DNA from: Chthoniobacteraceae bacterium
Lineage (GTDB): Bacteria > Verrucomicrobiota > Verrucomicrobiia > Chthoniobacterales > Chthoniobacteraceae
Reading direction: 5' to 3'
Length of the DNA stretch: 33,562 bases
NCBI GenBank assembly: GCA_031409335.1
Contig: JANNWY010000107.1
Location: 1 to 33,562 of the forward strand
Part shown: positions 14,617 to 31,062 of the stretch, piece by piece
How positions within the stretch are numbered: position 1 is the first letter of the stretch
How the letters are laid out: each line of letters begins with the position of its first letter
Made by a program: the position numbers and the translations under genes
The notes under the pieces: model-generated
Database searches by the model: none
The model's input: only the letters and a program-made list of their open reading frames with translations
What the model was told of the DNA's origin: nothing

Positions 14617-14633
14617 ACTCTCGCGGCCTGCTC

Positions 14634-15476
14634 ATGGACATTCGCAAGGCTCTCATCACCGCCGCTGGCAAAAACCAGCGCACGCTGCCGCTGCAATCGC
14701 TCGTCGATCGTGACGGCGTCACAAAAACCGCGCTCGCCATCATCATCGAGGAAATCCTGCGCGCGGGGATCGAGACGATCGGCGTCGTCATCAGCCCCGG
14801 CGATGCGGAGCCGTATCGCGCCGCGGCGGGGAAACACGCTGAGCGGCTGACGTTCATCGAGCAGCCCGCGTCGCTCGGCTACGCGCACGCGGTGCATTGC
14901 GCGGCGGAGTTTTGCGGAAACGATCCGTTTCTCCTGCTCGTTGGCGATCACTTGTATTTGAGCGCCACGGAGAAGGGCTGCGCGCAGCAGCTCGTGGAAA
15001 TCGCGCGCGCGGAAAACTGCGCGGTGTCGGCGGTGCAATCGACGCACGAAAGCAAGCTGCCGTACTACGGCGCGATCGGCGGCAAGCTCGTGAACGCCGC
15101 GCAGCGCCTTTACCAAATCGAAGCCGTCCTCGAAAAACCCACGCCGACGGAAGCCGAACAAAAGCTCACCGTCCCCGGACTCCGCGCGGGCTACTACCTG
15201 TGCTTTTTTGGAATGCACGTCCTCACGCCCGCCGTGCAGCGCATCCTCGGCGAACTGCTCGCCGCCGCGTCGGGCCACGAGAATTCCGTGAATTTTCGCG
15301 CCGCCGTCGCCCGCCTCGCCACGCAGGAGCGATACCTTGCCTGCGAACTCGACGGACGCCGCTACGATTTCGGCGTGAAATACGGCCTGCTCACCGCGCA
15401 GCTCGCGCTCGCCCTTTCCGGCAAGGAACGTGACGAGGTGCTGCGCGGTTTAGTTGAGTTGCTCGCCACCCGATGA
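14634..15476 (+). CDS. Sugar-phosphate nucleotidyltransferase (GalU/UTP-glucose-1-phosphate uridylyltransferase-like)
   Basis: [31 protein letters not shown] and RYDFG motifs. Confidence 0.85.
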
Positions 15477-15491
15477 GGCGCGCACAGAGAT

Positions 15492-15657
15492 TTCCGGGTA
15501 GCACGCTCGTCCCGGGCGTTGGTCTCGGCGTCTCGCCGAGACGAACTTTCTGCACCGTCCTTTCGTCTTCACGCGCTTGTCCCGCTGCAACGCTGCCGGG
15601 AAGTCCGTCTTCGCGGGACGCCAAGACCAACGCCCGGGACGAGCGTGCTACCCGGAA
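15492..15657. repeat. GTAG-type REP/REPIN inverted-repeat element
   Basis: TTCCGGGTAGCACGCTCGTCCCGGGCGTTGGTCT / AGACCAACGCCCGGGACGAGCGTGCTACCCGGAA form perfect arms with internal hairpins. Intergenic within a probable operon. Confidence 0.85.
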
Positions 15658-15684
15658 CTCGCTGCCACCCGCATTTTGCCAGCC

Positions 15685-18600
15685 ATGTCTCTCTCACTAA
15701 TCGACCTCATCACGTCGCCCGAGGACGCCACCCGCAATCGCTCGCTCGACGAAATCTGCGCAGCAATGTCATTCGGGGATTTGCTCGCTGAATGCGACGC
15801 GCTCGACGCCTTTCGCGACCGCAGCGAGAACTTGTACGAGCGCGTCCGCGCGCTGTTTTTTCTCTACGCGATCCACCGTTTCCATCTGCCGTCCCGCGCG
15901 GAGTTGAGCGCGAGTGGAAAGATTCCATTTCGTGGCTACGAGCAGTTGCTCCACCGCCGTTTCGAGGAAGCGATCGACATTTTTTCCGCAGCGCAAAAGG
16001 CCGACGGGCCGAGCGATTCGCTGAGCAGCGCGCTCGCCGCCGCGTATCACCGGCTCGCTTTTCAAACGCTCGCGGATCAAGTCCGGCGCAGCGTCCGCAC
16101 GGTGCGCGGGAATCAGTGGATGTTTCGCATGGGCCACCCGAAAGATCAGCCGCTGCGGCTCCGGCGCGAGTTGCTCCAGCCCGCGGCGGACGGCTCCTTC
16201 CCGATCCTCCGCGAGCGCACGCCGGTGCGCATGGACCTCACGCACTCGGCGTGGAGCGACATCTTTTTTCTCGGCATGGATTTTCCCGAAGGCGCGCGGG
16301 TGCTGAATGTCTCCGTCGATCTCGGCGTGCATGGCCGCGACACCACCACGCAGCCGCCGGTGAGCGCGTGGCTGCGCGTGATCGAGGAGCCGGTGCTGCG
16401 GCTGGTGAGCGTCGATCTGAATGCGCGCGCGGACATTTCGCAGCTCTCGGAAGTGTTCGATTTCGCGAAGGATTATCTCGGCCTTTTGAAAGCCGCCGTC
16501 ATCGCCTCCGGCGTCGTCCCGCCGGGCATCGAAGGCTCGGGTCAGTCCCTCGGCGATCTGCTCGCGGAGATGCTCGGGCCGGGCCGCGGGCTCGAACTCG
16601 TCTCGTCCGTGAATGACATCCCGAAAGGCTCGCGCCTCGCCGTTTCCACCAATCTGCTCGCCGCGCTCATCGGCGTGTTGATGCGCGCGACGGGCCAGGC
16701 CGAATCGCTCACCGGGCCTTTGCAGGAAAGCGAACGCCGGCTCGTGCTCGCGCGCGCGCTGCTCGGCGAATGGATCGGCGGCAGCGGCGGCGGCTGGCAG
16801 GATTCGGGCGGCGTGTGGCCGGGCATCAAGCTGATCGAGGGCGTCGCGTCGCAGGCGGGCGATCCCGAGCACGGCATCTCGCGCGGGCGCTTGATGCCGA
16901 CGCATCACGTTTATTCGCGCGAAGAGATTCCGCAGGAAGCGCGGCAGCGATTGCAGGATTCGCTCGTGCTCGTCCACGGCGGCATGGCGCAAAATGTCGG
17001 GCCGATTTTGGAGATGGTGACGGAGAAATATCTGCTGCGTTCCGGGGAAGAATGGAAGGGGCGGCAGGAGGCGCTCGGCATTCTCGGGCAAATCCTCGAC
17101 GCGCTCCGTGATGGCGACATCGCGCGAGTCGGCGCGGTCACGACGCGCAATTTTCAAGGGCCGATCCAGACGATCATTCCGTGGGCCTCGACGCATTACA
17201 CCGAGCGGCTCATCGAGCAGGTGCGCACGGAATTCGGCGCGGATTTCTGGGGCTTTTGGATGCTTGGCGGAATGAGCGGCGGCGGCATGGGATTCATCTT
17301 CGCGCCCGCGCGAAAAGCGGAGGCGCAGCAGCGGCTCGCGGAAATCATGAGCGCGACGAAACGCGAATTGCAGCACGCGCTGCCGTTCGCGATGGAGCCC
17401 GTCGTGTACGATTTTGCGATCAATGAAAACGGCACCTTCGCCGATCTGCTCGACGGCGCGGACGCGCTGATGCCTGCCGGATATTATTCGCTCACTGTTC
17501 CCGATCTTTTGCGAAAAGACCGGCGTGACCTTTCGCCGCTGCGCCGCACCGAGCTGGATAAATTCGGAGCCGCCTGTCGCACGAAGCCCGAGCTGCGTGG
17601 CGTGGTGCAGACGCTTTTCGACGCCATGTTTCCGCGCGGAAAAGCCGAGAGCGCGGGCGATGAAAGCCTCGCGGCACTTCTCGCTGCCAACGGTTTCGAC
17701 GCGCGTCTGCACGAGCAAATCCGCGCGCAACTCCGCGAAGGCCGCATTGGCCTGGCGCAAAGCCGCCTGCCGGCCAACTCCGTGATCGAGGACGTGCAAC
17801 CGGGGGACGTGAGCGAAGTAGGGCAGGTGCCCCGCCTGGCAGAAAGTCCGGCGGGCGCCCCGCCCGCCAATCATACGGGCGAGGCGCCCGCGGGACAGAC
17901 GACAGGCGGGGCGCCTGCGCTACTTCCTGTCCGCTTCCAAGCCTTCGACCCAAAGCAAACCGTTACGATCACGCATCGCCGCATGCCCCACTGGCGGCAA
18001 AGCGGCGCGACGTATTTCATCACGTTCCGCCTTGCCGACTCCATCCCCCTGGAAATCCTCCGCGCCCACCAGCAGGAACGCGCCGACTTTTTCCAAAAGC
18101 TGCCGTCGAACGCGAACCGGCAGCAGCGCGAGGAGATGGAGGAATTCTTCCGCGAAAAAATGGAGCAGGAACTCGATCGCGGCCTCGGCTCCTGCGTCCT
18201 GCGGGAGGCGCGCGCCGCGGATGTGGTCGAGGAAACGCTGCGAAAATTCGATGCCGACCGTTACCAGCTCGGGACTTACGCGATCATGCCGAATCACGTG
18301 CATGTGCTGGTTAGTCCGCTCGGCGAGCACGATCTCGCGGGCATCATGCACTCGTGGAAATCGTTCACGGCGAAAGCGATCAACCGCCTGCTCGGGCGCA
18401 GCGGAGCGGTGTGGCAGGAAGAGAGCTTCGATCACATCGTGCGGGACGAGCAGCAGCTTCGGAAGTTCGCGGATTATATTGAGAACAATCCGGTGAAAGC
18501 GGGACTACCGCCAGGGGCGGCGCGTGTGGGAATCGGAAGTAGCGCAGGCGCCCCGCCTGCCGACCGTCCGGCGGGCGCCTCGCCTGCACGAACTGCGGGC

Positions 18601-19812
18601 GGGGCGCCCGCGGGACTTTTGGCAGGCGGGGCGCCTGCCCTACTCTGCGGGCTCGCCGCCCTCAAAAATGGCGAAATCGCCGTCGTCACACTCGCCGCTG
18701 GCGCGGGCTCGCGCTGGACGCAGGGCGCGGGCGTCGTGAAGGCGCTGCATCCATTCGCCAAGCTTGCCGGACGCCACCGCACTTTCCTCGAAACGCACCT
18801 CGCAAAATCGCGCCGCATCGCGCGCCTGTGCGGCACGCCGCTGCCGCACATTTTCACCACGAGCTACCTCACGCACGAGCCGACGGCCGCGTTTCTCGAA
18901 AAGCAAAACCACTACGGCTACGAAGGCCCGCTCCTGCTTTCGCGCGGCAAAAGCGTCGGCCTGCGCATGATCCCGACCGAGCGCGATCTGCGTTTCGCGT
19001 GGGAGGAAATGCCGCAGCAGATGCTCGACGAGCAGCAGCAAAAAGTCCGCGACAGCCTGCGTGCGGCGCTCATCGGCTGGGCGCGCGGTGCGGGCGAGGC
19101 GGACGACTACACCGACAATCTCCCGCTGCAATGCCTGCATCCCGTCGGCCATTGGTTTGAAATCCCGAACCTCTTCCGCAACGGCACGCTCGCCCAACTG
19201 CTCGCGACGCAGCCCAACCTAAAATACCTGCTCCTGCACAACATCGACACGCTCGGCGCGGACGTTGACCCCGCGCTGCTCGGGCATCACATCGAGAGCG
19301 GCGCGTGCCTCACCTTCGAAGTCATCGCGCGTCGGCTTGAAGATCGCGGCGGCGGACTCGCCCGCGTGAACGGCCGCCCGCGCCTCGTCGAAGGGCTCGC
19401 CATGCCGCGCGAGGAAATCGAATTCGACCTCACCTACTACAACACGCTCACCACCTGGATCGCGCTCGATCCGCTGCTCGCTGCCTTCGACCTCACGCGC
19501 GAAGACTTCGCGCCCGGCGCGGACAGTGACGAAAAGATCACCACCGCGATCCGCAACCTCGCCGCGAAGATGCCCACCTACATCACGATCAAGGAAGTGA
19601 AAAAACGCTGGGGCCACGGCCAGGAGGACATTTTCCCGGTCGTGCAATTTGAAAAACTCTGGGGTGACATGACCGCGCTGCCCGAGATCGACAGCCGCTT
19701 CATCGTCGTCCCGCGCCGCCGCGGGCAGCAGCTCAAAGATCAGGCGCAACTCGACGGCTGGCTGCGCGACGGCAGCGCCGCGCACGTCGAGACGTTGTGC
19801 GCGTGGGAGTGA
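15685..19812 (+). CDS. GHMP-like sugar kinase / UDP-sugar pyrophosphorylase (UDPGP-like) fusion containing an in-frame Y1 transposase insertion
   Basis: Kinase motifs [22 protein letters not shown] and GGMSGGG. Pyrophosphorylase motifs [19 protein letters not shown] and QFEKL. Continuous 1375 aa frame from ATG 15685. Confidence 0.85.
17815..17926. repeat. Left REP cluster (four palindromic units, GTAG...CTAC)
   Basis: GAAGTAGGGCAGGTGCCCCGCCTG ... CAGGCGGGGCGCCTGCGCTACTTC, translated in frame as EVGQVPRL...GGAPALL. Confidence 0.9.
18536..18644. repeat. Right REP cluster (four palindromic units), inverted relative to the left cluster
   Basis: GAAGTAGCGCAGGCGCCCCGCCTG ... CAGGCGGGGCGCCTGCCCTACT. 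Confidence 0.9.
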
Positions 19813-25043: not shown

Positions 25044-25205
25044 CCTTCCGGCTTTCGCTCACTCAGCACTTTCCGCAAGTCCCGAGGCTTTCCCTAGCGG
25101 CTCGATTCCCGCGTAGTGATTGGCGAGTGCCTCGACTGATTCGGAAGTGGCGGTGAGCATCCCGGCATTGTGGGAGAGACGAGTTGGGTGTCACGCTTGT
25201 TCATC

Positions 25206-25318
25206 AAGGATGAAGGATGTGAAGGATGGTGAAGGATGGATGCGGGCGATGGGGTCATGTTCGGGCGATGGGGTCAGTTCGGGCGATGGGGCGATGGGGT
25301 CAGAGCGAGAATCTCGCT
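25206..25318 (+). repeat. Stuttered purine-rich repeats ending in a 23-bp GGGGTC motif
   Basis: AAGGATG x4, then GGGCGATGGGGTCA x3 plus a partial copy, then GGGGTCAGAGCGAGAATCTCGCT (25296-25318). Confidence 0.8.
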
Positions 25319-25404
25319 GTCCCGATCGCGATTCGCGCCGAACTGTTTTCCGGTCGCTTCGACAAGAAAGTTCCCTCCCGTGGCTTTGTCCCCGGTCACC
25401 AACA

Positions 25405-25800
25405 TCACATGGTTCGACTCCGGCCGTTTGGAGCCACGGAGAACTCCATGCGCGAGCGGAAGAAGCACACGTCGAATTCCATGAAAAAATTGGTCTGTCC
25501 AAGCACCAATCGCACTTCATCGGTGCGGCACCAGGCAAAAGCCAGCCGCACCGGCGCAAATTCGCCGACGCGGGCTTGAATGAGCAATGGCATTGCGGGA
25601 GTTCCCGCCAGGGCTCCGCCCAGCCGGATGGTGGCCCGCTGATCGTCCCACGCCGCGCGCAGTGTCTGACCTGCACTCCAAGGCAGCACGTTCACGTCGG
25701 CCCCGCTGTCCAGGAGTCCTTCCACCGCGAGGCTCTCGCCGCCGAGCGTCAGCGTCAGGGGCAGGAGCGGCTTTCCGGCGGGCGAATAGGCAAACTGCAT
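25405..25800 (-). CDS. Retropepsin-like (clan AA) aspartic protease-like protein
   Basis: LLDSGADVNVLP catalytic motif and VLGQTNFF C-terminal motif. Confidence 0.75.
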   Translation of the reverse strand: MQFAYSPAGKPLLPLTLTLGGESLAVEGLLDSGADVNVLPWSAGQTLRAAWDDQRATIRLGGALAGTPAMPLLIQARVGEFAPVRLAFAWCRTDEVRLVLGQTNFFMEFDVCFFRSRMEFSVAPNGRSRTM

Positions 25801-25804
25801 GGCG

Positions 25805-26032
25805 TCATGGCTGAGATGCGGTATCGAGTTCCTGCATCAACGCCGCCGCTGCACCGGCTTCAAACACCGGAGTCGCGAGGTGGTAGGTGCGCCCGTGTTC
25901 GAGGGGCGCAATGTCTGGCTCCAAGTCGAGTTCTTCGGCAAGGAAGCGAATGAGACGCAGTTTGTCCGCCGCGGGCAGTGCCCGAACATTGGGAAGGACT
26001 TCGGCGAGAGACATGGTCAAGGAATGTGTCAC
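25805..26032 (-). CDS. Small hypothetical protein, antitoxin-like partner of the protease
   Basis: 75 aa, EVLPNVRALPAADKLRLIRFLAEEL, 4 bp from the protease ATG. Intact in both copies. Confidence 0.7.
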   Translation of the reverse strand: MTHSLTMSLAEVLPNVRALPAADKLRLIRFLAEELDLEPDIAPLEHGRTYHLATPVFEAGAAAALMQELDTASQP

Positions 26033-29849: not shown

Positions 29850-30338
29850 ATGCTTGTCGCGCCGATGAATCCGCAATGCTCCACCGCACAATCGCCCGCG
29901 TTTCCCAACACGCGCTGGTCGGTCGTGCTCGCCGCCACGCAGCGCGAGACGCCGGGCGCGGCGGGAGCGCTGGATGAATTGCGCCGCGCGTATTGGTATC
30001 CGCTTTACGCGTTCGCGCGGCGCAGCGGGCACGCGGCGCATGATGCGCAGGATTTGACGCAGGAGTTTTTCGCGCGGTTGCTGGCGCATCGATGGCTCGC
30101 GGATGCGGATCGCGAGAAGGGAAAGCTGCGGACGTTTCTCATCGTGGCTTTCAAGAACTTCATGGCGAAGGAGTGGCGTCGCGCTTCGGCGGAAAAACGC
30201 GGTGGCGCGCAGGCGCCGCTGCAACTCGACACGGCGATCGCGGAGAGTCGCTACGCCGCGGATGCCGCGCCGGGGCACGCGGCGGATGCGGCGTTCGACC
30301 GGCAATGGGCGCTGACGCTTTTGAACCGCACGATCGTG
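29850..30338 (+). pseudogene. ECF sigma-70 factor truncated before region 4
   Basis: FPNTRWSVVLAA, YWYPLYAFARR, AQDLTQEFF and FDRQWALTLL. Homology ends at about 30338, where cassette A copy 2 begins. Confidence 0.85.
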
Positions 30339-30434
30339 GGGGCGATGGGGTCAGCGCGAGAATCTCGCTGTCCCGATCGCGATTCGCTTCGACAAGAAAA
30401 TTCCCTCCCGTGGCTTTGTCCCCGGTCACCAACA

Positions 30435-30830
30435 TCACATGGTTCGACTCCGGCCGTTTGGAGCCACCGAGAACTCCAGGCGCGAGCGGAAGAAGCACAC
30501 GTCGAATTCCATGAAAAAATTGGTCTGTCCAAGCACCAATGGCACTTCATCGGTGCGGCACCAGGCGAAGGCCAGCCGCACCGGCGCAAATTCGCCGACG
30601 CGGGCTTGAATGAGCAATGGCATCGCGGGAGTCCCCGCCAGGGCTCCGCCCAGTCGGATGGTGGTCCGCTGATCGTCCCACGTCGCGCGCAGTGTCTGAC
30701 CTGCACTCCAGGGCAGCACGTTCACGTCGGCCCCGCTGTCCAGGAGTCCTTCCACCACGAGGCTCTCGCCGCCGAGCGCCAGCGTCAGGGGCAGGAGCGG
30801 CTTTCCGGCGGGCGAATAGGCAAACTGCAT
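30435..30830 (-). CDS. Retropepsin-like aspartic protease-like protein (copy 2)
   Basis: DSG motif; few substitutions relative to 25405-25800. Confidence 0.75.
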   Translation of the reverse strand: MQFAYSPAGKPLLPLTLALGGESLVVEGLLDSGADVNVLPWSAGQTLRATWDDQRTTIRLGGALAGTPAMPLLIQARVGEFAPVRLAFAWCRTDEVPLVLGQTNFFMEFDVCFFRSRLEFSVAPNGRSRTM

Positions 30831-30834
30831 GGTG

Positions 30835-31062
30835 TCATGGCTGAGGTGCGGTATCGAGTTCCTGCATCAGCGCCGCCGCTGCACCGGCTTCAAACACGGG
30901 AGTCGCGAGGTGGTAGGTGCGTCCGTGTTCGAGGGGCGCAATGTCTGGCTCCAAGTCCAGGTCCTCGGCAAGGAAGCGAATGAGACGCAGTTTGTCCGCC
31001 GCGGGCAGTGCCCGGGCGTTGGGAAGGACTTCGGCAAGAGACATGGCGAAAGAATGTGTCAC
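30835..31062 (-). CDS. Small hypothetical protein (copy 2)
   Basis: Paralog of 25805-26032. Confidence 0.7.
   Translation of the reverse strand: MTHSFAMSLAEVLPNARALPAADKLRLIRFLAEDLDLEPDIAPLEHGRTYHLATPVFEAGAAAALMQELDTAPQP

Follow-up and report, generated by a model that had tools for sequence, protein, structure and literature searches.

A REP-associated tyrosine transposase domain lodged in frame, with two hairpin ends, in a kinase-pyrophosphorylase gene of a Chthoniobacteraceae bacterium

In a 33,562-nucleotide stretch of Chthoniobacteraceae DNA (contig JANNWY010000107.1 of assembly GCA_031409335.1; hereafter the window), the gene for a kinase-pyrophosphorylase enzyme carries within its own reading frame the domain of a REP-associated tyrosine transposase (RAYT), enclosed by two hairpins made of repetitive extragenic palindromes (REPs), each a REP doublet or REPIN. 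On balance, we favour the reading that the RAYT and its two hairpin ends form a passenger domain of an intact enzyme, likely non-spliced and likely moving between alleles of this gene. The frame is open throughout, the host and the catalytic residues are conserved, occupancy of the site is patchy, and closely related alleles carry different cassettes.

The REPIN-RAYT-REPIN cassette (17815..18645, plus strand) comprises 831 nt or 277 codons, encoding residues 711-987. Its left REPIN (17815..17926, no strand assigned) shows GTAG at 17818-17821 and an inverted REP with terminal CTAC at 17920-17923, and its right REPIN (18538..18644, likewise without strand) has GTAG at 18539-18542 and CTAC at 18640-18643; once translated, both are predicted to become disordered linkers. 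Folding gave -58 kcal/mol for the left hairpin (17815-17926; z -9.8) and -63.7 kcal/mol for the right one (18538-18644; z -10.5), values that none of 200 shuffles equalled in either case. Between them lies the RAYT domain of the Y1 HUH type (17929..18537, plus strand), which contains no stop and keeps HVH at 18295-18303 (residues 871-873) and the catalytic-position tyrosine of YIENNP at 18475-18477 (residue 931). The initial annotation, made from the sequence alone, had described a stop-free 277-codon block within a metabolic gene, retained HUH and tyrosine motifs, GTAG..CTAC palindromes at both ends and no intein motifs, and each of these claims stands; neither Pfam nor Rfam revealed an intein or RNA-family signature. 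Its notion of a plain insertion does not, as comparison with sister genomes shows that the cassette occupies the place of 14 host codons. The sole Rfam match, to MIR1151 (36.8 bits vs a cut-off of 90, at 15512-15637), was dismissed as a chance match to another hairpin.

By sequence, fold and associated REPs, the domain is a RAYT, and it is neither a canonical REPtron nor an intein or an insertion sequence (IS). In isolation it scores 87.2 bits against the NCBIfam model NF047646 REP_Tyr_transpos (cut-off 80; 79.7 bits for the whole protein) and 32.3 bits against Pfam Y1_Tnp (cut-off 23). E. coli TnpA-REP (4ER8) is matched both by sequence (phmmer E 8.8e-6) and by the predicted fold (Z 14.3, 137 aligned residues, root mean square deviation (rmsd) 3.2). 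Of the features of RAYT subclass 2.7 ([ND]HVH, WQ, YI[LR][NQ]NP and a long N-terminus), NHVH and WQ agree, and YIENNP deviates at the third position. The IS200 transposase model reaches 20.3 bits vs a cut-off of 55, and the assembly holds one copy of the window RAYT. Furthermore, H871, H873 and Y931 are invariant in all 61 domains found in the same host gene, which share 23 invariant columns at a median column conservation of 64%; about two thirds of these domains were gathered via RAYT similarity, and the 13 protein matches and 5 loci retrieved through the host alone likewise retain H-H-Y. Purifying selection, for which a dN/dS test (nonsynonymous against synonymous rates) had been proposed, is indicated by 21 RAYT pairs with pN of 0.25-0.39 vs pS of 0.58-0.81, and by a dN/dS ratio of 0.18-0.39 in the 13 pairs with estimable dS. 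Metagenomes searched for near relatives of the RAYT gave only matches of 32-55% identity, too distant for a low-divergence dN/dS estimate.

The host gene (15685..19812, plus strand) encodes 1375 residues, namely an N-terminal domain, a GHMP/fucokinase-like kinase (residues 176-558 by NF009948, far under its full-length cut-off) and a UDP-sugar pyrophosphorylase (UDPGP domain). It is single-copy in the assembly, and its named best protein matches come from Chthoniobacter and Chthoniobacteraceae. None of the 430 positions invariant among 104 empty orthologs is changed in the window protein, in line with the earlier impression that both host halves look intact; the filled allele P0115 alters six of these positions. 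In a predicted model of residues 629-1375 (78 sequences; mean predicted local distance difference test, pLDDT, 77.7), the RAYT mostly reaches about 90 and the linkers stay below 50, so that both parts of the fusion are predicted to fold and the hairpin-encoded linkers to be disordered; a single-sequence RAYT fold was poor (mean pLDDT 47) and was not used. The host part of the model aligns with the UDP-GlcNAc pyrophosphorylase 8yp3 across the insertion (Z 31.0, 376 aligned, rmsd 3.4), and Foldseek with the 747-residue model gave only pyrophosphorylases among the matches listed. Because the host residues on either side align to a single 8yp3 chain, the site is a loop within the pyrophosphorylase fold, and not, as annotated initially, the junction preceding that domain.

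In relatives, this loop is mostly empty. It holds a RAYT in 13 of 120 proteins (the best 120 of 8000 scored matches), in 5 of 80 genome loci (filled in frame; one more stops at a contig end, and several others show only REP-like or tandem-repeat inserts) and in one of the 19 relatives' loci that were anchored, three sets that overlap partly. The same-genus genomes G001 and G003 are empty, with 123 nt vs 912 nt between the anchors, and their proteins are thus 263 residues shorter, close to the roughly 270 anticipated. These sisters keep 14 codons that are missing from the window allele and resemble those of other empty alleles, and they are therefore not deletion products of it; by this sequence comparison, gain of the cassette is the best interpretation of the window allele. 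On a host tree built without the loop (118 rows, after removal of 3 that were truncated or lacked an anchor), 12 changes are required to explain the 14 filled rows, among them the window, against a shuffled mean of 13.5, which is near random. Four alleles (L031, L033, L039, L089) carry only REPs at the same loop. L004/P0043, which resembles a broken allele, was set aside, since it consists of a REP linked to unrelated sequence where a contig ends. Other genomes have unrelated short tandem repeats in the same permissive loops, e.g. PSTIN-type peptides (L041, L044, L141, P0088), so that coding repeats of several kinds are drawn to this loop.

Y1 domains were also expected in other housekeeping genes. 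This genome indeed has them, in frame, in its carB and recG genes, and elsewhere they occur in those of DinG, DnaE and D-Tyr-tRNA deacylase. The carB (G000 C92:8516-12544, L130) and recG (C96:33967-36825) genes carry in-frame RAYTs with separate REP types, and the carB site is vacant in the same-genus genome G002 (net 717 nt). Further proteins (P0123-P0128) possess two RAYT domains per chain, with methyltransferase/DUF1156 and IspG as hosts.

A RAYT tree (FastTree, 263 rows, sampled as best matches to the window query) groups by host gene, as the 61 rows of this host require 6 changes (shuffled 55.3), the 37 of DinG 3, the 17 of DnaE 2 and the 6 of CarB a single one. Likewise, the CarB-hosted RAYT of this genome clusters with other CarB RAYTs (97), apart from the window RAYT. 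Within the present host gene, 51 of the 61 filled alleles were compared (3 unanchored and 7 short ones excluded), and host distances of 0.06-0.09 occur alongside RAYT distances of 1.3-1.5 with differing REP peptides, and a host distance of 0.72 alongside a RAYT distance of 0.23 with the same REP type. For instance, P0098, P0106 and P0119 have hosts 95-96% identical with RAYTs 44-46% identical and different REP peptides, and between P0141 and P0196 the hosts show 75% and the RAYTs 80% identity, the REP type being shared. Approximately unbiased (AU) tests reject the host clades on the RAYT tree in all four groups, which were picked after the trees were seen (p 1e-9, 0.005, 0.012 and 0.023). Because hosts of about 95% identity carry very different RAYTs with different REPs, cassettes are exchanged between alleles, and the sequences point to likely movement between alleles of this single gene by horizontal recombination.

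The surroundings of the window cassette are themselves unusual. The left host flank (17485..17814, plus strand, about 110 codons, an interval set post hoc) has surplus differences from the sister genomes, and the right one (18646..18681, plus strand) contains about 12 codons differing from all four sister proteins. Residues private to the window vs all four sisters amount to 7 of 26 scorable positions near the site vs 15 of 865 elsewhere, mostly toward residues of the wider family. At the DNA level, compared with two sister genomes, private changes including synonymous ones are overabundant from about codon -110 to +10 (again post hoc), the synonymous counts being 23 vs 14 in codons -100..+13 and 60 vs 111 outside (p 0.002, post hoc). 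This excess fits import by homologous recombination, and both flanks were likely imported together with the cassette, as judged from these comparisons; the amino-acid part of the signal could be explained by adaptation to the insert.

The REP motif of the window cassette is present in 74 copies in this genome (reversed control 0). Four genomes of the same genus have 0-1 each, and none of 60 relatives has more than 6. Among 13 Y1-like loci of the assembly, only the window one is flanked on both sides by its REP; the carB cassette has one related REP. According to a codon-score classifier built for this analysis, 27 of 45 window REP clusters lie in frame in coding sequence (the two cassette ends included), with 12 others and 6 at contig edges; the other REP families gave 1/59, 2/18, 3/23, 2/5 and 0/5, and random intervals 872/1500. 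Pfam analysis of 19 of the 27 spanning open reading frames (ORFs) identified Mfd, UvrA, SMC, a penicillin-binding protein, citrate synthase, alpha-2-macroglobulin and a polyketide synthase-nonribosomal peptide synthetase (PKS-NRPS), with four lacking a family. Compared with the orthologs of relatives, the REPINs in mfd, uvrA and smc stand in for short host stretches, and net REPIN length is divisible by three in 12 of 15 comparisons, the remaining three being off by 1-2 bases at the nominal junction. Furthermore, for each of five other filled genomes, the REP of the resident cassette is commonest in that genome itself (4, 17, 12, 26 and 8 copies). By this association, the fused RAYT is likely the maker of the genome's dispersed REPINs. 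A general rule that a fused RAYT implies intragenic REPINs was rejected, as only 1 of 59 clusters is in frame for the REPs that accompany the recG-fused RAYT.

Other REP insertions of this genome are worth recording. The PKS-NRPS gene (3837 aa; G000 C295:33698-45208, L112) contains six in-frame REPINs of the window family, some within Pfam domains. At C161:25917 and C282:7771, a REPIN GTAG stands at an ORF end and apparently provides the stop codon. Two free-standing RAYTs (C71:2292-3227 and C23:11677-12966) each contain an in-frame REP cluster within the transposase gene itself, immediately following the HUH motif.

Taken as a passenger, the transposase would be expressed from the promoter and start codon of the host, and translation would yield one unspliced chain in which the hairpin-encoded peptides, according to the model, may serve as flexible linkers so that both parts fold. 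The passenger domain may still nick single-stranded REP DNA; E. coli TnpA-REP works as a monomer, a property that would fit life as a passenger. The domain would also have produced about 40 more REPINs here, many lying in frame within other genes. Presumably, this genome gained the cassette recently, when a stretch of a few hundred bases in the resident empty allele would have been overwritten by a filled foreign one.

Several points weigh against this account. Same-host RAYTs are not strictly one clade, as DnaE-hosted ones nest inside (support <95, in a best-match sample), and host and RAYT distances of the 51 filled alleles are correlated (Mantel rho 0.45), which indicates a vertical or kin-limited component. 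The closest RAYT relative is 64-65% identical and no close donor was found, and dS is saturated in 8 of the 21 RAYT pairs. A flank excess was absent near the site when 14 filled were compared with 89 empty alleles (p 0.73), and among the 51 alleles similarity in none of the flank windows followed that of the RAYT (rho <=0.14 near the site); in these other alleles, import from a close donor would not show at the protein level. In addition, the REP pattern behind the 74 copies was derived from this genome and favours matches here, the assembly (98% complete, 326 contigs) could be missing a free cognate RAYT, and the comparison of five other filled genomes covered REP copy counts only.

With these points in mind, other explanations can be weighed. 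The transposase might drive its own spread by nicking or strand transfer at an empty loop or at a lone REP already present there, which would turn empty alleles into filled ones by intein-like homing without splicing, which departs from the passenger reading only in the cause of transfer. RAYT lineages specific to a host gene, the retained catalytic residues, repeated gains at one site, flanks that look imported and the REP-only alleles (L031, L033, L039, L089) would all fit such homing, as would the REP dimer published for residues 715-734 of the 1125-aa Opitutus terrae uridylyltransferase (PMC3733652, supplement, as far as available); we consider it a possible but rather unlikely cause. A domesticated domain serving the host enzyme or the cell, e.g. 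as a nucleic-acid-binding regulator kept by selection, would agree with the purifying selection, the predicted stable fold and the undamaged host. Yet the closest relatives manage without the domain, the same domain is found in unrelated enzymes, and catalytic residues and cognate REPs are retained and co-vary. Domestication as a fixed host domain, which the initial annotation had left room for, is thus disfavoured by a mostly empty site and a cassette swapped between alleles, and we regard it as improbable. Still less probable appears a single ancient insertion with vertical inheritance and many losses, in which the discordances would be tree error. It would account for the clustering of same-host RAYTs and the Mantel correlation, and canonical RAYTs are reported as vertical in the available text of 10.1101/2021.07.10.451892. 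However, RAYTs only 44-64% identical in hosts 94-96% identical and the AU rejections already largely refute it, the host codons lost from the filled allele persist in its empty sisters, and about 90% of alleles are empty.

Removal or bypass of the cassette after transcription (by protein splicing, RNA splicing or ribosome bypass over the complementary REPINs), or a RAYT produced from an internal start, is in our view very improbable. The two REPINs are indeed mutually complementary (87% over 85 nt), in-frame GTG codons exist at 17809 and 17827, at or inside the left hairpin, and a cysteine follows the cassette in the window allele. Against this, the Pfam search of the fusion protein found no intein family, junction residues differ freely among 58 alleles, Rfam gave no match over the cassette at E 0.1, and a search for a promoter-like site of the cassette RAYT found none. 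Its first ATG (17983) lies within the conserved core, and an internal start would still give a pyrophosphorylase fusion, because there is no stop. No contig joint omitting the cassette was found among four DNA runs, where contigs lose rare variants and are hence uninformative on excision. An assembly artefact has a negligible probability. Hairpins do break contigs, and the initial annotation had asked for reads spanning the junctions: the left one is bridged without difference by contigs from two sequencing runs (of one study, one possibly the source), and the right one is crossed with a cassette-side overlap of just 29-30 letters, slightly short of the 31-letter rule for bridging. Moreover, 60 other same-host fused sequences come from other assemblies (some being fragments or near-duplicates). 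Beyond the passenger reading, we can tentatively imagine a homing element of new design, in which an HUH transposase would be a permanent unspliced enzyme domain with host-gene-specific lineages, converting empty alleles and scattering coding-compatible REPINs into the loops of dozens of proteins; this bolder proposal is possible, but we hold it with considerable doubt.

Near the host gene, a GalU-like nucleotidyltransferase is encoded upstream at about 14630-15476 (below all NCBIfam cut-offs) and is probably the partner of the host enzyme. An intergenic REPIN of a second family lies just upstream of the host gene (15500-15670); this family, with 90 motif matches, accompanies the recG-hosted RAYT and is almost entirely extragenic. 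Elsewhere in the window, a near-duplicate of about 800 nt (25120-25953 and 30250-30983) contains a minus-strand ORF of 131 aa resembling an aspartyl protease (LLDSGAD motif), and its sigma-factor-like 5' part recurs at 29850 and 33400.

To date, RAYTs have been described as extragenic, non-jumping, vertical and congruent with their host (Bertels and Rainey, 10.1101/2021.07.10.451892, available text), and in the accessible portion of the family survey of Quentin et al. (PMC6006769) unusually long members were discarded as 'gene fusions or annotation errors'. The words 'fused' and 'fusion' do not occur in the available text of Bertels et al. (10.1101/119735). In-frame REPs in genes are already published, being most abundant in Opitutus terrae with uvrA among the targets (Di Nocera et al., PMC3733652); in the available part of that paper, no mention of a transposase inside a gene was found. 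Literature searches, which covered few subscription papers, listed no title or abstract that describes an in-frame RAYT. A RAYT without a gene of its own, repeatedly gained at one site and swapped between alleles, contrasts with the extragenic, non-jumping and vertical picture, and such loci bear on the open question of why hosts keep RAYTs. Natural filled, empty and REP-only alleles are available for testing the movement of a REP-RAYT unit. In-frame palindromes have long been known in Verrucomicrobia and insert peptides into core proteins such as Mfd, UvrA and SMC; the domain is a candidate for the enzyme behind them. Such fusions were filtered from a family survey as annotation errors and are mis-named 'transposase' in databases.

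Among known systems, inteins with homing endonucleases likewise bring a nuclease in frame into a conserved gene, always at one position, and show host-gene-specific lineages, patchy occupancy and horizontal movement from allele to allele. The window cassette, however, has no splicing domain, its junction residues are not conserved, and its site is a variable loop instead of an active site; it is bounded by DNA hairpins and would employ single-strand HUH chemistry. With IS200/IS605 elements it shares Y1 transposase ancestry and terminal hairpins, and IStrons also spare the host gene (PMC4227781, as far as available); unlike these, the window RAYT is single-copy and under the IS200 cut-off (20.3 vs 55), and the cassette shows no intron match, its REPIN flanks being only about 110 nt each. 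The intragenic REPs of Opitutus and the Rickettsia palindromic elements are in-frame palindromes in uvrA and other genes too, and the REP dimer of Oter_1564 (residues 715-734 of the 1125-aa uridylyltransferase) probably occupies the same loop, an orthology taken from length, name and position only; their inserts, in contrast, encode 7-82 residues and no enzyme, according to the available part of PMC3733652. TnpA-REP proteins cut single-stranded REP substrates via a tyrosine linkage, with GTAG guiding site choice in some (PMC8266576, available text). In motifs, fold and GTAG-footed hairpins on both sides, the window cassette resembles the REPtron, i.e. RAYT/TnpA-REP with its REPs, bacterial interspersed mosaic elements (BIMEs) and REPINs, which also pairs one transposase with one REP family and disperses non-autonomous REPINs, the motifs appearing nearest to subclass 2.7 in the accessible portion of Quentin et al. 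(PMC6006769). Nevertheless, canonical REPINs are almost exclusively extragenic, whereas 27 of 45 clusters of the window family are in frame, and the window RAYT is intragenic, lacks a start and stop of its own, and belongs to cassettes that are patchy and swapped between alleles, as traced on the host-gene tree and not on a species tree.

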